From an uncultured bacterium (GTDB lineage Bacteria > Patescibacteriota > Doudnabacteria > UBA920): 64,000 nt of DNA. The notes beneath the pieces were generated by a model. The model was not told the origin of the DNA and ran no database searches. It worked only from the letters and a program-made list of their open reading frames with translations. Shown one piece after another: positions 2,789 through 62,946 of the stretch. The stretch's first letter is position 1. Each line of letters starts with the position of its first letter. The stretch lies in the NCBI GenBank assembly GCA_963749445.1, contig CAVVMJ010000007.1:9971-73970 (forward strand), given 5' to 3'. The position numbers and the translations under genes are program-made.

Positions 2789-4197
2789 CGAATCTAGGAA
2801 GAATCGGAAGGTCGATCGGCACAATGGTGTCCGGTCTGGAAGCGAGGATTTTGGGCTGGATTAGCGCTCATGTCTCGCTAACGCCGCGCGCCTTCGGCAC
2901 GTGGCTTGACGAACACAATTTCATCCGGCTGGAAAACGGCGCGCCTGTCACGGACTACGCCGGTTTCTTCCGCTGGACACGCAACTCGCTCCTGTCCCTG
3001 ATGGCACTGACTTTATTGCTCGAAGCCTACACCATAGTCATCGGGACATTCAACAACACCCCGCTCGGCCTCGGCATAAGCTTAGGTTTCGGTGTGGCAG
3101 TGTTCGGCATCGCGTCGGTGGTCTGGATTTGGAGGACCATCGGCCGCGTCAACGAAGGCTTGGCCTGGATTTTCACTCTGGCCACTGCCACCCTTGCCCT
3201 AATTGGCTTAGGGACTCCGACTTACCAGTACTACGCCGCGGGGAACCTCGCCAAACTTTCGGCAAAAGATATCCAAAATCTGATCGCGGCAGGCATTCCG
3301 CGAATCTGGGCTATGGCGGGCTTTTGCCTGCTCAGCCTGATCGTTCTTCCGCTTACCTGGATGACCACTCTGGGGCCCGCCCTGCTGTCCCTGGCTTTCG
3401 CCAAGACGGCAGAAGGTCTGGAAACGGCGTGGACAGAAATCCGGAAAATATTCTCGCACGATAGGGAAGTAGCGGAAGCCGCTGCGGAAAACCTCCGCAA
3501 GCGGACAGAAACACAGACCGGCCTGCTCATGCTCACATGGGCGATCCTGGCGCTGTTTACTCTCTCTATTATTCTCTCGTCCACGGTCTGGGGGCCTTTC
3601 GGCGGCTTGGTCATCGGTATGACCGCAATCGTGCCGGTATGGATACGACGGTGGAATATGTTCTTGGGAACTTTCTTAACCAAGGCACTCTACGGCGTAG
3701 CCACAGGAGGGCTGATCTTTATCTGCTTCCTGTACGGCCTTTCACTCTCGGCCTTGATGCTGATTCCCGACCAAATTTCGCTCAACGCACTGCTAGTAAT
3801 CAAGTGGGCCAGCTTCCTAATCGGTCTCGCTTCGGCAGTTGGAGTGTTGTTTACCTCCACCACGGCCAGCAAACAGAACGAACTGGAAGCCGGCATGGGG
3901 GAAATTCAGCCCTACACCAGAAAGGTCACGGGTTTCGGGACTGATGGGCAGCCGATTTTTGAAGCTGTTCACCCCAAACCGACGTCCTTCGCCTGGGTCA
4001 AGCCCACGGTCTTCGGTGCTGTTGTCATCGCTCTGGTTGCCTATGTGCACTACAACGGCAACCCGCTTTCCGGCACCAGCCCGCTCAAGCTGGTCGCTTA
4101 CACAATGGTTGTCGGCTTGATCCTTATTCTCTTTGGGATCTTTTCCGGCGGCAAGACGCAAGCCACCCCTACACAGGAGGTGCGCCATGACCACTAG
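2785..4197 (+). CDS. hypothetical polytopic membrane protein (at least 10 predicted TM helices)
   Basis: ATGA start/stop overlap with the upstream gene and GGAG upstream. Long hydrophobic segments throughout. The longer track ORF from 2689 would overlap the previous gene by 100 nt. Confidence 0.5.
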   Translation: MTNLGRIGRSIGTMVSGLEARILGWISAHVSLTPRAFGTWLDEHNFIRLENGAPVTDYAGFFRWTRNSLLSLMALTLLLEAYTIVIGTFNNTPLGLGISLGFGVAVFGIASVVWIWRTIGRVNEGLAWIFTLATATLALIGLGTPTYQYYAAGNLAKLSAKDIQNLIAAGIPRIWAMAGFCLLSLIVLPLTWMTTLGPALLSLAFAKTAEGLETAWTEIRKIFSHDREVAEAAAENLRKRTETQTGLLMLTWAILALFTLSIILSSTVWGPFGGLVIGMTAIVPVWIRRWNMFLGTFLTKALYGVATGGLIFICFLYGLSLSALMLIPDQISLNALLVIKWASFLIGLASAVGVLFTSTTASKQNELEAGMGEIQPYTRKVTGFGTDGQPIFEAVHPKPTSFAWVKPTVFGAVVIALVAYVHYNGNPLSGTSPLKLVAYTMVVGLILILFGIFSGGKTQATPTQEVRHDH

Positions 4198-4771
4198 GAA
4201 AAAGTGCATCGTCATCGGCACTTTAATCGTCGGCGCAGCAGCCGCTGTGCTCCTCGGCTATTACGTAGGCATTGGCAAGTACGCGCCCAGCGAACAGGCG
4301 GCCTACAACCGCCTTCACGCGGCGAACAACTGGGAGTTTGAGGGGAAAACAAGCGATGTTGAAGACAAGCAAGTTCCCCTCGCCGACAAGGTTGCTCAAG
4401 TCAACGTCCTAGCCGTGCAAAAACGCACTCTGGACGCGCAAATCGGCCACCCGGAGCTGACCAACTGCCGGACGCAACCCGGCAAGGACAAGGACGGCAA
4501 GCCAATACTGGTGTCCGAGCCGTGCCCCGGCGGCGTCTCCGCGGCAATCTACAGGGGCAAAGAGGCCGTCATAACGGTCCAGCTCCTAACTTACAGCAAC
4601 GACGAACTCCCGCTCAATGTCGCACCGACCCTCGTCGGCGACGAGCAACTCGGTGGGACAGCAGTACCCCTGGGCAACAACCGGTTCCGCGTGTCGGGAC
4701 TGGTGTATGACCAGGAAAAAATCGCCGGCGGATACAAGATTCGCGTTACGCCGGAAGGAGGAGGAAACTAA
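4185..4771 (+). CDS. hypothetical membrane-anchored protein (N-terminal TM, extracytoplasmic domain)
   Basis: GGAGG upstream. The ATG overlaps the upstream stop by 11 nt. MTTRKKCIVIGTLIVGAAAAVLLGYYV signal-anchor. Confidence 0.5.
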
Positions 4772-13020: not shown

Positions 13021-13046
13021 GATGATATTATACATCAACTTCTACT

Positions 13047-13123
13047 AAATACGAAAGTGGCTAAAAATACTAAACTTATGGTTTATAAGTTTAGTATTTT
13101 TAGATAATTTAGTATTTAGTAAA
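13047..13123. repeat. long AT-rich nested hairpin (TACTAAATAC...GTATTTAGTA, inner perfect 19-bp stem)
   Basis: CTAAAAATACTAAACTTAT-GGTT-ATAAGTTTAGTATTTTTAG nested within TACTAAATAC/GTATTTAGTA. Related elements lie at 29371, 58565 and 62882. Confidence 0.6.
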
Positions 13124-15284: not shown

Positions 15285-15638
15285 CTATAATGCCTTATCA
15301 GCCCACGGCATAGCGCGCAAACGGGCTTCGGGTATCTGTTTGCCTTCGTCGTCCGTCCCGTAAGTCCCCTGGCCGATTTTCGCCAAGGCTTTGTCAATTT
15401 TGGCCAAATCCGCCTGCATTACGGCAATCACGTCCTGGCTGGCTTCGTCCACGTTAATTTCCTCGGCATTTTCGTCTTCTTCGTCGCCCATTTCAGTATG
15501 AGCCGAAAGGCCGGCCAAATCATTCTCCAGTTGCCGCTTTTTTTGCAGCAGCTGTTTTTTCATTTCTTCGGTAAAAGATTGCGATAGCATATTTTTTTGA
15601 TTATCTGATGTAATTTCATTATAGCCGATATCCGTCAT
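15285..15638 (-). CDS. DksA/TraR-like protein lacking the Cys4 zinc finger
   Basis: Coiled-coil N-terminus. C-terminal GTYGTDDEGKQIPEARLRAMPWADKAL matches DksA GTYGxCxxCGxxIPxxRLxAxPxA with all Cys replaced. Confidence 0.5.
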   Translation of the reverse strand: MTDIGYNEITSDNQKNMLSQSFTEEMKKQLLQKKRQLENDLAGLSAHTEMGDEEDENAEEINVDEASQDVIAVMQADLAKIDKALAKIGQGTYGTDDEGKQIPEARLRAMPWADKAL

Positions 15639-15656
15639 TTATCAAAACTCTCGGGC

Positions 15657-15860
15657 AGGGCTTACGCATTGGCCAAGTGCGAGGCATTTTGCGAGGATGT
15701 TTGGAGGCGTACTAAAGGTACGACGACAAACACCGCAGCAAAATAACGAAGCAATTGGCCAAAGCCACTTTTTTGGAACCCGGACTTCCTCTGCCAAAAA
15801 ACGGCGGTGCGTAAGTCCTGCCAAAATTGAAAAAGCGCCCCGGTTAGGGGCCGTTTATAA
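15657..15860 (+). ncRNA. candidate structured small RNA with intrinsic terminator (family unknown)
   Basis: 15-bp closing helix GGCAGGGCUUACGCA/UGCGUAAGUCCUGCC, perfect only as plus-strand RNA (one G-U). Nested 8-bp UUGGCCAA helix and GUAC-UAAAG-GUAC hairpin. Then GCCCC-GGUUA-GGGGC stem plus U-rich tract at 15835-15860. Lies in an 850-bp gene-free gap. Confidence 0.3.
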
Positions 15861-16486
15861 AATAAAATGCCCACGCGAGGCGCTTGTAACCCGAAATTAA
15901 TCGGATACGCTTCGCGCAAACGAGTTGCGCAAAGAATACCACACTGTTAATTCCAGGCCTTCCCAACTTTACAGTCGGGAGAAAGCGTCTGAAGTCCAAT
16001 CGCATTTCAAACTGCACTCTAAACTTCTCTTGTGGTAGTTTAACAACTACCTAAAAACTTTGATTGCCTATTTTGGGCAATTAATGCTAATCCATTGGGG
16101 AATAAATTAGCCTACATTTTTGTTTTTGTTTTTCAAACAGCTTAGATTGGAATAAGCTATGACGAGAAGTTTAAAGGAAAATACCCTCAAATATCAAAAT
16201 TAAGAGCAACTTCCTTTAGTTCAGTTTACCTCGACCTTGCGTCGGGGTTTGAAATCAATTTTTAAAGTGCTTTTGTTTCCGAATCTGCTTGAATAACTGT
16301 GTATTTATCATAGCAATGTTTGCCTAAAATGTCAATTACTGACGTCTTTTGTAACTAAACTCCTTTTAAATAAAAGCGATTTAAATTTTGCTGATATAAG
16401 TTGGCTTGCTTTACCGAATTTTTGATTATTTTATCTTTTGGGGATAACCCATATAAACCTTTTAATTATGCCGGGAATAGGAAAAT

Positions 16487-18799
16487 TTAATCACCTTTGG
16501 TCAGCCTAATCCTAAAAAGAGATTTTAAATGGTTCTGATATAATTCCTTATATTTAAAAGCTTTTTTTGCATCTAGAATTATAATTTGTTTCAATTTGGC
16601 TGTATAAAAAAATCGCAGTAAACTTTGAAAGTCATACATGCTCCGCGGCAAGAAAAACTCCCTATCCGGATCAGCAGACTTTTGAGCCAAAGCTTTGCTA
16701 TAAGGATCAGCTACTTTCATACTTGGCCACTGCGAAAAAATGACGGTTTTTGCCTGCAATTGGGCCACCGGCTGGACCTGCTGGACGGAGCGCAAAAAAT
16801 TTAAAACCCCGCTGCTGCTTATTAAAAGCAAGCTGTCTTTATGGATACTGAAATTGCGGAACAGTCTGTTGCTTCCTCCGCCGCTGCGTTCAACCAATAA
16901 AAACGCGCGCTTTTTCAGTTCTCCGTAATATTCTTTGTAAAGCTTCGTAATTTCCGCCGGCGAGTCAAACACCATTACTGCCGGCAAGTCGGCTTTGCTT
17001 AAAATTTTGACGGGATTTGAATCGACGGCCGGCGTAATCCGGCAAATCGGCTGATGATGCAGAATTCCGACTAATTTGCTTCGTAATTTTTTTACCGGCC
17101 ATGGTATCAAAGAAAATTTCCCCATACCGAGGCGATTAATAAAATAGTCGAGCGCGACTTGTTCTCCTTGCGGTTCAATGACGCAAACCTTTTCAAAGCC
17201 TGAAAAACTTTTGCCAACGATGCCGCCAATATCTAGCGGCAAGGAATGGAAACTGCAGGAACGCTCCCCAAAACTTATCCATTTTACTTCCGTAGGCCTA
17301 TCCTCAAAAAAATCCTTGAGGTTACTGGCAAAGTCCGTGAGGCTTTGGAGCTTTAAACTTTGGTTTGCCGATGATAACTTTTCCGTAAAATTTTCCGCGG
17401 CACTCATAATCTTTAAAAATTCTTCGGAATTTCTTAATTCATCCGTTACGCTCACTTCGCCCCAGCCTTTGTTAAATTTTAACAATAGCGCGTTGGTCAA
17501 ACCAAAAAATAAATCCGCGTCCGAAAGCAATCGGCTGATAATATCTCTATATTCGGCATCGCCAAAGCCGGTTTCCGGATCGTAAACGGTTTTTAATAAA
17601 TAAGATAAAAAGCCCCAGCTGCTGCGCTGCCCAATAGTAGCCGTGATTACGGCCTCAAAATCACCAAGACCGATAACAATCAGGCCGCGCTGGCGGAATA
17701 GCTCGGAACTTTTCAATTCTAAAAAAGTTTGCTGGTCGCAACATAACACCCTATCGGGTAATTTCTCCGGCAGTTGCCGGCCTGAAACCAAACCCTGAAA
17801 CTGACCGCCGAAAAATGACAGATTCAAATCCAACAAGCACTCCGTTTGCCAATTTGTGGCCTGCCAAACCAAAAGCTTCATTAAAAACCTAGCCTGCTCC
17901 GGATTTTGGATGTCCTGATGAAGCAGTACTTCAAATTTTTGGCGGTCAAACATATGCCGCGGCTGGAAAATTCCCCGCGCCAAATTTTGCCGCCATGTTT
18001 CCAAAACCTGATAGCGCTTGGGTACCACAATCAGCAGTCGCTCGGCTGTCCGGCTGACAATTTGCCCGATAATATCCTCAACGGGAACAAAAGGGTCAAC
18101 GATGTAAACCGTTTTGTCCTGCATAACAACAGAGCCCAAGCGTGATTTAGCCACTGATATTTTTTTGACTGGTTTGGCTGGCTCTAATTTGTAGGGTTTG
18201 ATTTTTGCTTTTAACAAATCCGACCACGGAGCCTTGACGCGTTCCGCCAGTCCGGTAATCTGGGTCTTAGCTTCGTTGGGCAAACTTTGATAAACGCCGA
18301 GCAGCCGCTCCAGCAACTCCATGGATGCCATGGCGTCCGCCAAAGCGCGGTGCGCGTTTTTGTGCGAAATTTTAAAAATACTCGCCAAATTTTCCAAATT
18401 GTAACTATGATGCGTAGGCAGCAAAAACTGCACCAAGTCCATAGTGTCAATTACCGGCCCGAAAAATTTTATGCCGCACTTTTGCAAAAACTTAATGTCA
18501 AAACCCACGTTATGCCCAACTATCGCCGCCGTCCCCAGCTTCCCCTGCAAAAAAAACAGCTCGTCCGAAATCGCGCCGCCTTTTTCTAGGTCGGCTGATG
18601 TGAGTCCAGTCAGTCCCAAAACATGGTGCGACACCTCGCCCTTTGGCTTAAACACCCTGTCCCATTTTTCAACAATCCGAAATCCGAAATCCGAAATCCG
18701 AAATCCGGCTATCCCCACTTCCAAAATCTCATTGGTTACCGGGTCAAACCCGCTCGTCTCAATATCCAAGCTGTAATAAATTTTTTCTTGATTTGCCAT
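16487..18799 (-). CDS. DnaQ-like 3'-5' exonuclease domain protein with a large C-terminal domain of unknown function
   Basis: DEDDh motifs YYSLDIETSGFDP, GHNVGFDIKFL and HRALADA. No Walker A seen in the 600-aa C-terminal part. Start chosen at MANQEK (18799), which avoids overlap with the upstream gene. The track ORF extends to 18844. Confidence 0.55.
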   Translation of the reverse strand: MANQEKIYYSLDIETSGFDPVTNEILEVGIAGFRISDFGFRIVEKWDRVFKPKGEVSHHVLGLTGLTSADLEKGGAISDELFFLQGKLGTAAIVGHNVGFDIKFLQKCGIKFFGPVIDTMDLVQFLLPTHHSYNLENLASIFKISHKNAHRALADAMASMELLERLLGVYQSLPNEAKTQITGLAERVKAPWSDLLKAKIKPYKLEPAKPVKKISVAKSRLGSVVMQDKTVYIVDPFVPVEDIIGQIVSRTAERLLIVVPKRYQVLETWRQNLARGIFQPRHMFDRQKFEVLLHQDIQNPEQARFLMKLLVWQATNWQTECLLDLNLSFFGGQFQGLVSGRQLPEKLPDRVLCCDQQTFLELKSSELFRQRGLIVIGLGDFEAVITATIGQRSSWGFLSYLLKTVYDPETGFGDAEYRDIISRLLSDADLFFGLTNALLLKFNKGWGEVSVTDELRNSEEFLKIMSAAENFTEKLSSANQSLKLQSLTDFASNLKDFFEDRPTEVKWISFGERSCSFHSLPLDIGGIVGKSFSGFEKVCVIEPQGEQVALDYFINRLGMGKFSLIPWPVKKLRSKLVGILHHQPICRITPAVDSNPVKILSKADLPAVMVFDSPAEITKLYKEYYGELKKRAFLLVERSGGGSNRLFRNFSIHKDSLLLISSSGVLNFLRSVQQVQPVAQLQAKTVIFSQWPSMKVADPYSKALAQKSADPDREFFLPRSMYDFQSLLRFFYTAKLKQIIILDAKKAFKYKELYQNHLKSLFRIRLTKGD
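18675..18708. repeat. heptanucleotide tandem repeat (ATCCGAA)x4 plus partial, inside the exonuclease ORF
   Basis: Encodes GFRISDFGFRI in the N-terminal exonuclease domain. Confidence 0.85.
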
Positions 18800-18809
18800 A
18801 ATTGTTACT

Positions 18810-19547
18810 TTAGGCAGGTAAACTGATTTGCCAAAGCGCTTCAAATAAGTAACCCAAATTCTGGTTCAGCTCCGCGCTTTCAACAATCATGCCAAAATTT
18901 TCTTTTGTTGAAGAAATAATCCCAACTTTATCGTCATAGATATATAAGGTCATGGCAAAAATCATATTTGCTGGGGCGTAACGCAATAACCTTAATTCAG
19001 AAGGGTCGGTCGGCCAAGTTTCTTTTACATCTTTTTGCTTGCTTCTAACAACCCTCAAAGCATAACCTGATTTAATTCTCCGCGCAACATATTCTTTCAT
19101 AAATCTTTCGCCGGGGATTTTAAATAAGTCAACTATCGATAACACGCCTCTTATATTTTTGTCCGGGGTTGAAATTGTATCTTCTAAAACCGTTTTAATT
19201 CCCTCCACTCCTTCGTAAAAAGAAGTTTTCGGCTTAGACTTTAAAGTATTGTAAACAGACTTAAGTTCCGGCAACAAGCTGTCAAAAGTTCGTTGTTTTT
19301 CGGCCAAATTCCGTTTAATTTTTTCCGGGTCATTGGCGATATAATACCGGACTTTATGTTTTTCATATGCCCCCACTAATCCTTCTTCCGCGAGTTTTTC
19401 CAAAAGATCGTAGGCAGTCGGCCTGGCCACCTTGGCTCTCAAAGCAATCTCGTGGGCCTTGGCCTGCCCCATTTCCAAAAGCGCCAAATAAACCCGCGCT
19501 TTTTTATCGTCCAAACCGAATTCCTTTAAGTCTTCTTTTAATGCCAT
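18810..19547 (-). CDS. TrmB-family transcriptional regulator
   Basis: MALKEDLKEFGLDDKKARVYLALLEMGQAKAHEIALRAKVARPTAYDLLEKLAEEGLV winged-HTH plus TrmB-like C-domain. The track ORF extends to 19685. Confidence 0.65.
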   Translation of the reverse strand: MALKEDLKEFGLDDKKARVYLALLEMGQAKAHEIALRAKVARPTAYDLLEKLAEEGLVGAYEKHKVRYYIANDPEKIKRNLAEKQRTFDSLLPELKSVYNTLKSKPKTSFYEGVEGIKTVLEDTISTPDKNIRGVLSIVDLFKIPGERFMKEYVARRIKSGYALRVVRSKQKDVKETWPTDPSELRLLRYAPANMIFAMTLYIYDDKVGIISSTKENFGMIVESAELNQNLGYLFEALWQISLPA

Positions 19548-29370: not shown

Positions 29371-29462
29371 CTCTACTAAATACTAAAGAATACGAAAGGT
29401 ACTAAATACGAAACTTAATGGCATGCTGATAGTTTCGTACATTTTAGTATTTCGTATCTTTA
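29371..29462. repeat. AT-rich long hairpin of the TACTAAATAC family
   Basis: tactaaatactaaagaatacgaaaggtactaaatacgaaact ... tttcgtacattttagtatttcgtatctttagtatttagta. Confidence 0.55.
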
Positions 29463-29536
29463 GTATTTAGTAGAAAAACAAGTCCCATCCCGACCAACCG
29501 GCCAAGACGGGACATATCAAACTTTATATTAAATTC

Positions 29537-42632: not shown

Positions 42633-42706
42633 TGGTGGACCTGGGGGGAATCGAACCCCCGACTGAACTATGCCATAGTCCCGTATTACCATTATACTAC
42701 AGGCCC
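42633..42706 (-). tRNA. tRNA-Ala (anticodon GGC)
   Basis: Acceptor GGGCCTG with G3-U70, anticodon loop ATGGCAT, T-arm GGGGG-TTCGATT-CCCCC, CCA. Confidence 0.7.
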
Positions 42707-56904: not shown

Positions 56905-57005
56905 TTAAGTTATAAGTTGTGGCGGCCGGTACGGTCATAGGGATATGGTTTTAGGCGACTTACAACCTATTACCTACAACTATACTGGCCGCCATACCTT
57001 ATAAC
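56905..57005. repeat. long inverted repeat (22-nt arms GTTATAAGTTGTGGCGGCCGGTA / ACTGGCCGCCATACCTTATAAC) upstream of murA
   Basis: Arms separated by about 50 nt in the 320-bp intergenic region. Confidence 0.5.
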
Positions 57006-57017
57006 CTATTCCCCATC

Positions 57018-57227
57018 TTAAAAATGAAACAGCTTCCCAAACCAGTGTTCCAAATACTGCGAGCGCTGGTTAGTAAAATAAACCACTAACAACGCAGCAA
57101 GATAAATCAAATTCAAATACAACACCTTCCATAAATCATGCCGGATAATCCGGTATTCTGCCGCGTGCATTGAGCCGCCGGAAACGGTTACGTTTTCCTG
57201 GACGATTTTTTTGTGCTTTTTGGACAT
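57018..57227 (-). CDS. hypothetical small membrane protein
   Basis: About 69 aa with one TM helix. Confidence 0.3.
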   Translation of the reverse strand: MSKKHKKIVQENVTVSGGSMHAAEYRIIRHDLWKVLYLNLIYLAALLVVYFTNQRSQYLEHWFGKLFHF

Positions 57228-57392
57228 AAATAGTAGCGTTCCCAAATATACAAATCAACACAAATATACAAATTACTGACAGTGCTATAGATTTGTATAT
57301 TTGTTAAAATTTGTATATTTGCGATTACTACAATTATAGCATTTGAAAGGATTTGAACGCAAGCCGCCGGAGTGCTACAATACCAAAAGCTT

Positions 57393-58564: not shown

Positions 58565-58660
58565 AGCGATACTAATATACGAATGCATACGAATGATACT
58601 AATAATACGAATTCGTATTATTCGTTTCATTAGTATCAATTAGTATACTGGTATCTTTTA
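58565..58660. terminator. AT-rich palindromic hairpin element centred on GAATTC
   Basis: ATACTAATAATACGAA-TTCGTATTATT..ATTAGTAT with TACGAAT/ACTAAT repeats, downstream of the bactofilin gene. Confidence 0.35.
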
Positions 58661-62517: not shown

Positions 62518-62880
62518 ATGAGACCAGTAAAAAAAGACACCAACCGCATTGCCAAGGTCAATTCGCTAATTAGGCGCGAGTTGGGACCGATTTTGTTAGT
62601 GTTTTTACAGGGGATGGAGGGATTAGTGACCATTACCAAAGCCGACACCAGCAAGGATATGAAGTGGTGCAAGGTTTGGATTTCCATTTTGGGCGGAGAT
62701 GATGATAAAATTTTAGGTTATCTTGCAAAAAATATTTACGACATCCAGGGCGAGCTGAATAAATATTTTTTCACTAAAATTATCCCGCGGATTTCCTTTC
62801 ACCTGGATACCAGCCCAAGGTACGCGCAGCATATTGATGAAGTGATACGGAAGATACACGATGAAGAAGAGACAATTTAA
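62518..62880 (+). CDS. rbfA: ribosome-binding factor A
   Basis: RIAKVNSLIRRELGPIL...VTITKADTSKDMKWCKVWISI matches the RbfA KH-like fold. Confidence 0.8.
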   Translation: MRPVKKDTNRIAKVNSLIRRELGPILLVFLQGMEGLVTITKADTSKDMKWCKVWISILGGDDDKILGYLAKNIYDIQGELNKYFFTKIIPRISFHLDTSPRYAQHIDEVIRKIHDEEETI

Positions 62881-62881
62881 G

Positions 62882-62928
62882 AATTACGGATTGCGGATTA
62901 CGAATTCGTAATGCGCAATCCGTAATTA
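62882..62928 (+). terminator. 22-bp inverted repeat ATTACGGATTGCGGATTACGAA/TTCGTAATGCGCAATCCGTAAT centred on GAATTC
   Basis: Near-perfect palindrome immediately after the rbfA stop. Confidence 0.45.
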
Positions 62929-62946
62929 ATAATTCCTATTAAGTTA

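Follow-up and report, generated by a model that had tools for sequence, protein, structure and literature searches.

A probable minus-strand gene for a large structured RNA and a separate hairpin cassette in a gene-free gap of a Doudnabacteria contig

What is encoded in a stretch of a small bacterial genome in which no gene can be found? The question is raised by positions 15,639 to 16,486 of a 64,000-nucleotide stretch of contig CAVVMJ010000007.1, from an uncultured bacterium of the Doudnabacteria; this whole stretch is called the window below. A sequence-only reading had placed a plus-strand small RNA (sRNA) with its own terminator in the gap. The gap was flagged rightly, but strand, terminator ownership and main element were mis-assigned. 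We consider it probable that the gap holds a stand-alone minus-strand gene (~16300 to 15829) for a structured non-coding RNA (ncRNA) of ~471 nucleotides (nt), plus a separate, optional hairpin cassette. There is a lesson of method here, as the eye-catching hairpin is the least conserved part of the gap.

That the gap is free of genes was confirmed. It is slightly larger than first described because the downstream gene truly starts at 15590 (101 amino acids, aa). The flanking genes are all on the minus strand, namely a 785-aa DEDDh exonuclease gene ending at 16487 and a gene for a small protein, whose start lies at or before 15638. When the open reading frames (ORFs) of the window and of its relatives were compared, every ORF in the gap was at most 85 aa long and none was conserved. 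The earlier reading had also called the gap non-coding, and a coding or pseudogene reading was dismissed on these grounds. The gap is not an assembly artefact, as 1616 nt of the window recur with 100% identity in an independent assembly.

Transcription unit and conservation of the minus-strand RNA

Three features define the predicted gene.

15829..16300, minus strand: structured ncRNA gene of ~471 nt, recognized by promoter, terminator, conservation and fold; it has no ORF and no Rfam match

16307..16335, minus strand: sigma-70-type promoter with TTGACA (16335-16330), a 17-nt spacer, a TGc extended -10 and TATGAT (16312-16307); scan score 11/12 with TG

15829..15884, minus strand: extended intrinsic terminator with outer stem AGCGCCUCG/CCGGGGCGCU, inner stem, A/U-rich loop and U5 (15833-15829), from terminator scan and alignment

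The transcription start was placed ~7 nt past the -10 element and the 3' end at the U-tract. The predicted promoter is very strong, near-consensus and invariant. The pattern TTGACx-17-TAnnnT is present in 35/35 full-length loci, with a spacer of 17 nt in all and TGn in 31/35, and TTGAC and the -10 element form invariant alignment columns in the relatives.

The GCCCC/GGGGC stem-loop had been taken for the terminator of a plus-strand sRNA. The terminator scan assigns the site exclusively to the minus strand, with the tail GCTTTTTCAA. On the plus strand, the tail past GGGGC is CGTTTATAAAATAAAAT with three U only, and a GC-rich stem followed by a U run is not found there (tail CGUUUAUAAAAU). The GCCCC/GGGGC hairpin (15837-15851) is part of the extended terminator, where it forms an alternative local pairing. 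The same extended hairpin is present in 27/27 aligned members (outer stem AGCGCC...GGCGCU); L022 carries the compensatory double change AGCGGC/GCCGCU, and the terminator of L043, the closest relative, is identical to that of the window. In all relatives, a minus-strand transcription unit ends at this site. What stands of the proposed small RNA with its own terminator is that the gap holds a structured RNA and an intrinsic terminator; the terminator serves the minus-strand 471-nt RNA. Across members, the predicted RNA length is 447-584 nt. With its own promoter and intrinsic terminator, and with conserved orientation and position, the element is by its sequence signals an independent bacterial ncRNA gene.

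Relatives were collected in several ways. A genome scan with the small downstream protein gave four syntenic loci (L001-L004), two from metagenome-assembled genomes (MAGs) of Candidatus Doudnabacteria and two from MAGs labelled Saccharibacteria. In the alignment of their spacers, the hairpin is absent in 4/4, and the whole promoter-to-terminator stretch of the minus strand is conserved. A metagenome scan with a pattern of two invariant blocks, AAAACAAAAACN{85,115}AGTGYAGTTTGA, gave 35 loci, of which 28 had all other family blocks and were taken as true members. Protein-anchored look-ups added further members, including the independent assembly identical to the window. One locus, L045, was taken from the 1.21-Mb contig CAYYWQ010000001.1. 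A scan of viral contigs with the RNA pattern gave no match.

In every locus with flanks, the gene order is exonuclease, RNA, DksA-like gene, lspA, comM and nucleotidyltransferase, all on a single strand, so that the RNA gene always lies between the DinG-like exonuclease gene and the DksA-like gene. RNA identity to the window is 50-69%, and exonuclease identity is 29-42%. Judged by these alignments, the RNA family is conserved over a clade of the candidate phyla radiation (CPR) close to Candidatus Doudnabacteria.

Might the 471-nt RNA instead act in cis on the DksA-like gene, as a leader or attenuator with a conditional terminator that controls read-through? The RNA is always directly upstream of this gene on the same strand, with 59-75 nt to the start codon in most loci, and its 3' element has alternative pairings, the local GCCCC/GGGGC and the long-range AGCGCC/GGCGCU. 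However, a separate promoter-like site lies between terminator and gene in the window and in L027, and similar ones were seen by eye in other spacers. Inserts of ~170-200 nt are tolerated between terminator and gene. Moreover, a two-domain pseudoknotted fold of 450-580 nt is far above the size of known attenuators, and the U-tract is strong in most members. We regard a leader as improbable and continue with a stand-alone RNA gene.

A further signal lies close to the predicted start. A DnaA-box-like 9-mer is found at +10/+11 of the RNA gene in 21/35 members (e.g., L006, L016, L018, L020, and L024). Its variants TGTGGATAA, TGTGGACAA, TGTGGAAAA, and TGTGAATAA are reverse complements of TTnTnCACA. 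The window RNA has no such 9-mer at the equivalent site (~16291-16283). The 9-mer has no consistent pairing partner in the RNA. From the position of this motif, DnaA may control transcription of the RNA gene.

Fold and identity of the large RNA

The window RNA has a minimum free energy (MFE) of -159.6 kcal/mol (z = -8.7). For 27 full-length members, RNAalifold predicted 71 pairs, 40 of them with compensatory changes. We then built a structure by hand from this consensus, in which the small RNAalifold hairpin at alignment columns 639-650 was dropped in favour of the better supported long-range helix LR2, and a loop-loop interaction was added. This structure has 82 pairs; 94.1% of the cells are paired and 51 pairs show changes on both sides. 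Column shuffles gave 80.8% paired cells (0/500 reach the observed value), and sliding the 3' partner by 1-3 columns gave 32-51%. With compensatory substitutions beyond these controls at 51/82 pairs, the element is a structured RNA by covariation.

G.U or U.G pairs are fixed or frequent at several positions (columns 528:629 in 27/27, as U.G; 440:467 in 23/27; 501:653 and 504:650 in 18/27 each). The minus strand is the RNA strand because the fixed G.U pairs would be A.C mismatches on the plus strand.

The predicted elements of the fold, in the 5' to 3' direction of the RNA, are as follows.

16175..16216, minus strand: hairpin H2 (AAGGAAGUUGCUCUUAA ... UUUGAGGGUAUUUUCCU); 14 pairs, 8 changed on both sides, 91% paired

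16164..16174, minus strand: 5' strand of the long-range helix LR1 (UUAAACUUCUC), partner 16019-16029; 10 pairs, 6 changed on both sides, 97.8% paired

16139..16158, minus strand: hairpin H3, whose loop UCCAAUC (16151-16145) is complementary to the H7 loop; from covariation

16117..16138, minus strand: nearly invariant single-stranded tract GUUUGAAAAACAAAAACAAAAA; invariant columns, unpaired in the consensus fold

16034..16116, minus strand: variable hairpins H4, H5, and H6 inside LR1; the sequences differ and the hairpins are kept, and H6 (GGU...ACC) was scored

16019..16029, minus strand: 3' strand of LR1 (GAGAAGUUUAG), followed by invariant AGUGCAG; from covariation and invariant columns

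15987..16012, minus strand: hairpin H7 (GUUUGA ... UCAGAC), whose loop with GAUUGGA (16001-15995) is the kissing partner of H3; from covariation and invariant columns

15959..15986, minus strand: hairpin H8 (UCCCGACU-GUAA-AGUUGGGA) of variable sequence; from fold and alignment

15889..15958, minus strand: long-range helix LR2 (GCCUGGAAUUAA at 15958-15947 with UUAAUUUCGGGU at 15900-15889), enclosing H9 (15940-15904); from covariation

By these alignments, the fold is two-part. A 5' domain is closed by LR1, a 3' domain consists of H7, H8, and LR2/H9, and the 7-nt kissing interaction of H3 with H7 ties both together. This interaction is 92% paired and covaries, with CCAACC/GGUUGG in L003, GCCAAG/UUUGGC in L009, and CCCAAGC/GUUUGGG in L022. 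In the LR2/H9 region, helix 8 has 12 pairs, 9 of which changed on both sides; helices 9 and 10, at 96-97% paired, together comprise 23 pairs, with 21 changed on both sides.

Several unpaired segments are invariant, namely CGUCAU, GUUUGnAAAACAAAAACAAAAA, AUAAG, AGUGCAG, CAGAGUG, and AGCGCC. Likewise, AAAACAAAAACAAAAA fills invariant columns in two alignments and is unpaired in the RNAalifold consensus. Two partners were tried for the invariant AGUGC, a 5' GYNCU and the 3' GCGCU of RNAalifold. Neither was established, and the double change in L022 backs AGCGCC/GGCGCU.

Two observations concern parts of the RNA outside this core. An optional covarying hairpin is found in the 5' region of the large RNA gene in L002, L007, and L010. 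After the A-rich tract (window 16122-16111, minus strand), ~11/27 members have AUG-UAG, ~11 have AUG with a short unconserved frame, and 4-5 have no AUG.

Does the RNA belong to a known family? The sequence-only reading had proposed an RNA-family scan, and none of the families that it named (tmRNA, RNase P, 6S, signal recognition particle (SRP) RNA and others) matches. Rfam 15, with 4227 models including transfer-messenger RNA (tmRNA), RNase P, 6S, SRP, OLE, ROOL, GOLLD, HEARO, and raiA, yielded tRNAs only or nothing at gathering thresholds for the window and L001-L004. Permissive cut-offs of E <= 10 for 15500-16600, E <= 5 for ten homologous loci, and E <= 1 for the entire window brought up scattered noise alone, none of it recurring at the RNA. 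RNase P, 6S, tmRNA, and SRP gave no match at E <= 10 in the region or E <= 5 in the ten homologues. ARAGORN detected no tmRNA in the window, and the sole Rfam tmRNA match there falls on the tRNA gene 42633-42706. Full-text literature searches returned no description of such an RNA for CPR, Patescibacteria, or Doudnabacteria.

Housekeeping RNAs can also be recognized by architecture. In RNase P RNA, a P4 helix with a bulged U is flanked by CR-I (GGAAAGUCC) and CR-V (ACAGAAnnCGGCUUA) and encloses the specificity domain. 6S RNA is one extended ~180-nt hairpin with a large central bubble. The hallmarks of tmRNA are a tRNA-like domain of acceptor and T-arm and a tag reading frame.

The alternative to be weighed here is an extremely diverged RNase P, 6S, or tmRNA that escapes the Rfam models. 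In CPR bacteria, RNase P RNAs have often diverged so far that they fall under the noise cut-offs of Rfam (Lui et al. 2021, PMC8172020). A very strong conserved promoter would fit such a gene. There is a loose resemblance of H2, LR1, and the AAACUUC and UCAUAG motifs to P3, P4, and J5/7 of the E. coli M1 RNA, and for a 6S-like RNA the adjacency to a DksA-like RNA-polymerase-binding factor would be suitable. Against this stand the permissive Rfam and ARAGORN results and a comparison of the folds by hand. LR1 is an uninterrupted helix of 11 bp without the universal bulged U. It encloses only H3-H6, a region of ~110-150 nt without a cruciform. The CR-I and CR-V cores are not seen in the alignment, and beyond LR1 there is a structured 3' domain of ~200 nt, which is not known from any RNase P. 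A tmRNA was rejected as there is no acceptor, T-arm or tag frame, and 6S because several domains, long-range helices, and a kissing loop take the place of one long hairpin with a bubble at its centre. The SRP architecture was rejected on inspection. A diverged housekeeping RNA is very unlikely. In our judgment, the element most likely represents a new class of large structured ncRNA that is confined to a CPR lineage, with an accessory palindromic cassette beside it.

The accessory hairpin and the surroundings of the gap

The second element of the gap lies between the RNA gene and the DksA-like gene.

15654..15822, no strand assigned: accessory hairpin, closed by a stem of 15+8 bp, with a side hairpin (15764-15806) and a long arm in which three internal loops are conserved; from fold, repeats, and homologues

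The inverted repeat of the sequence-only reading exists, with 15/15 positions paired (14 Watson-Crick and one plus-strand G.U); its arms lie at 15654-15668 and 15808-15822, not at 15657-15671 and 15812-15826. The nested features are present as well, namely ATTGGCCAA at 15668-15676 and 15754-15762, a CGTAC-TAAAG-GTACG hairpin, and GCGAGG twice together with GGAGG. The internal loops, read on the plus strand, are purine-rich: GAGGC/AACGAA, GAGGA/CCGCA, and GAGG/ACGA. The region 15640-15870 folds with -97 kcal/mol (z = -7.4) on the plus strand and -86.4 kcal/mol (z = -5.1) on the minus strand, and no shuffle was as good on either.

Homologues at the same site, between the U-tract of the RNA and the -35 element of the DksA-like promoter, are present in L027/L039, L009, and L011 only. 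In the alignment of four sequences, the 28 core pairs are 92% paired and 14 of them changed on both sides; slid controls collapse to 23-46%. By this comparison, the hairpin core is a structured element too, and the covariation with homologous regions that the earlier reading had suggested looking for is found in both elements. The closing and outer stems differ completely between carriers and are the least conserved part, and the three internal loops are conserved. The helices of the hairpin are missing altogether from ~30 related loci, including the closest relative.

Is the hairpin the body of a plus-strand sRNA of ~200 nt that ends at the GCCCC/GGGGC stem-loop, as had been proposed? The plus strand folds better in all four carriers, by 3-10 kcal/mol of MFE, its purine-rich internal loops could form tandem sheared G.A pairs, and the stems covary. 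But no plus-strand promoter was found for the hairpin in the window, L027, or L011, and none lies ahead of it or is conserved in any of the four carrier genomes. Past the stem-loop, the tail of the window has three U and that of L027 has none, and the stem-loop itself is the conserved terminator of the minus-strand RNA. The G-U position that had been used to assign the strand is a weak argument, as G.U and A.C counts point both ways across the four homologous hairpins and overall do not favour the plus strand. In the core, their balance is on the side of the minus strand, as are all transcription signals. The element is also missing from most relatives. A plus-strand sRNA is a poor candidate.

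A second alternative takes the hairpin as a mobile or DNA-level palindrome, of the kind of a miniature inverted-repeat transposable element (MITE), a repetitive extragenic palindrome (REP) or an integration scar, without RNA function and in an insertion hot spot. On the RNA tree, the carriers fall in three separate clades, and L043, the sister of the window, has no hairpin. The first 42 nt, in the closing stem, are 95% identical between the window and L027, two distant genomes whose RNAs are only 58% identical. Unrelated fillers of ~200 nt occupy the same spacer in two other loci. Like REP and MITE palindromes, the hairpin is a long imperfect palindrome, intergenic, just behind a terminator and patchy in distribution. 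Unlike them, it is single-copy and site-specific, and its terminal stems are unconserved, its internal loops conserved. No further copy was detected by 15-mers with <=3 mismatches in the window, by blastn in all collected loci, or by a pattern scan of viral contigs. A covariance model of the hairpin (R1) likewise found none in 339 kb of related loci plus two extra loci, where each carrier genome has one copy. No consistent target-site duplication was seen by eye. Outer stems, the would-be terminal repeats, that are least conserved beside invariant loops and covarying stems are the pattern of a functional folded nucleic acid. A mobile palindrome is possible, and we do not favour it over a folded accessory element beside the RNA gene.

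The spacer shows further lineage-specific changes. In L011, a 36-nt piece of the hairpin, from its 3' arm, is duplicated exactly beside it (4604-4639 vs 4712-4747). L027 has the GC-rich mini-palindrome CCTGCC...GGCAGG twice (3726-3766 and 4350-4394), once as an insert in the hairpin and once in the 5' part of the large RNA gene, at the position of the optional hairpin of L002, L007, and L010. The fillers mentioned above lie at L041 2799-3000 and L047 1920-2115, and the one in L041 holds its own terminator-like and promoter-like signals. From the sequences compared, the terminator-to-promoter spacer appears to be a hot spot where individual lineages have gained insertions. Horizontal acquisition at this hot spot is the most likely origin of the hairpin, as it is present in only three unrelated sub-lineages. 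DksA homologues with a long N-terminal extension were tried as a proxy for hairpin carriers and were not predictive.

Two known structures were compared with the hairpin. Retron msr-msd: on the minus strand, the window hairpin has the retron-like order of closing stem, short hairpin and long hairpin. The neighbours are DksA-like, LspA, and ComM genes with no reverse transcriptase, and L009 and L011 have no short hairpin, so that this reading was rejected. Kink-turn: judged from the sequence only, the plus strand could form tandem G.A pairs; a 3-nt bulge is absent from the loops, which are symmetric (4x4, 5x5, and 5x6).

The genes and signals that flank the gap are listed below.

16487..18844, minus strand: upstream neighbour of 785 aa with an N-terminal DEDDh exonuclease domain (DinG-related), from domain matches; syntenic in every locus with that flank

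15285..15590, minus strand: DksA-like gene of 101 aa, starting at M17 of a 117-aa ORF, from an identical record and homologue lengths

15618..15645, minus strand: promoter-like site of the DksA-like gene, TTGATA-16-TATAAT, scan score 11/12, 8 nt past the hairpin

The start of the 117-aa ORF (15285-15638, minus strand) was probably mis-called and the real start would be M17 at 15590. A 101-aa protein is on record at 100% identity, most listed homologues have 101 aa, and the promoter-like site 15645-15618 overlaps the initial codons of the longer ORF. The protein matches the NCBIfam yteA/DksA models under the curated cut-off and the DksA structure 2kq9 of the PDB with E = 2.9e-8. In L027, the equivalent promoter is TTGAAA-17-TATAAT. 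In the alignment of carriers, a block around the -10 element of this promoter (TATCGGCTATAATGA) is kept together with the hairpin. In the exonuclease, only the N-terminal ~180 residues match a known domain; for the ~600 C-terminal residues neither Pfam nor the PDB gives a sequence match, and the last ~150 nt of the gene are unusually AT-rich (~29-34% GC).

Other repeats occur elsewhere in the window. AT-rich intergenic palindromes at 13043-13121 and 29372-29474 are built from the motif TACTAAATAC, which has 10 matches with <=1 mismatch against 2.65 expected (no shuffle reaches 10). With this excess, they resemble a small family of REP-like repeats, to which the hairpin at 15654-15822 is unrelated. 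Long imperfect inverted repeats with arms of 28-48 nt, also intergenic, lie at 56906-57335, 58568-58655, and 62877-62932; some consist of ATACGAA-like units.

Proposed role and comparison with known systems

What might such an RNA do? Large, highly structured bacterial RNAs whose function could not be guessed are few (OLE, GOLLD, ROOL, HEARO, and raiA), and each has opened up new biochemistry or is now doing so. The genomes of CPR bacteria measure ~1 Mb, and most of these bacteria have not been cultured. The retention of a 0.5-kb RNA gene with a near-perfect promoter in such a genome implies an important role. By analogy, the RNA would be abundant and trans-acting; it could form the centre of a ribonucleoprotein, or assemble by itself into a particle in the manner of OLE, ROOL, or GOLLD. 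Binding surfaces would be provided by the invariant unpaired tracts, and the contact between the kissing loops might just as well join separate molecules, as it does in ROOL and GOLLD. The DnaA-box-like site at +10 in most members may couple RNA synthesis to replication status. If this site and the DinG-like and DksA-like neighbours are meaningful, the role could be in transcription, replication or genome maintenance. The hairpin and the adjoining DksA-like promoter would form one cassette, gained horizontally and kept under selection for the fold.

In full, we lean slightly towards an undescribed class of pseudoknotted, strongly expressed ncRNA of ~450-580 nt that is fixed in Doudnabacteria-like CPR bacteria, acts as a ribonucleoprotein core or self-assembling particle and is possibly DnaA-gated, with the hairpin-plus-promoter cassette present in some lineages. 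Several points weigh against this reading and the gene model beneath it. The RNA start and 3' end come purely from sequence signals. The alignment was seeded by a sequence pattern and anchored by synteny, which does not bound the phylogenetic range of the family, and the conserved neighbours may merely reflect general synteny in the clade. The sequences are related, so the shuffle controls overstate significance and the slid controls are the fairer test. The strand evidence for the hairpin is contradictory, since MFE points to the plus strand in 4/4 and the A.C/G.U core counts and transcription signals to the minus strand. The Rfam misses are not conclusive, given the diverged CPR RNase P RNAs (PMC8172020). 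Finally, the function of the RNA is proposed by analogy only. With over 35 diverse members and a fold, kissing loop included, that covariation supports, the family offers enough for structure determination and pull-downs.

Four groups of known RNAs resemble the large RNA in part.

RNase P: The bacterial RNase P RNAs (RF00010/RF00011) are in the same size class and share the probable strong expression. They and the large RNA both have a hairpin and then a long-range helix with conserved A-rich nucleotides at its sides, and CPR forms evade Rfam (PMC8172020). In contrast to them, the large RNA has no permissive match, no CR-I/CR-V, no bulged U and no P7-P11 cruciform, and it has an extra 200-nt 3' domain.

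6S/Ms1: These RNAs are alike in strong promoter and probable abundance, and the large RNA adjoins a gene for a DksA-like RNA-polymerase-binding factor. It differs in being 2.5x the length of 6S, in not being a single long bubbled hairpin and in having no Rfam match.

CrcZ and CsrB/RsmZ: These protein-sponge RNAs repeat a single-stranded motif, in CrcZ the A-rich Hfq/Crc site. The A/C-rich tract AAAACAAAAACAAAAA, invariant and unstructured, would suit an (ARN)n- or S1-type single-strand-binding protein. The large RNA has one such tract and not repeated motifs, and the remainder is a rigid conserved fold.

OLE, ROOL, GOLLD, and raiA: The large RNA differs from these in having no Rfam match at E <= 10, in its CPR host and in its neighbours, the DinG-like exonuclease and DksA-like genes, and no associated protein genes such as oapA-C are evident beside it. 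Like them, it is a stand-alone gene of several hundred nt with many covarying helices and pseudoknot or kissing contacts. It also shares with them invariant unpaired blocks, a single-lineage range and a function that is not evident from the sequence.

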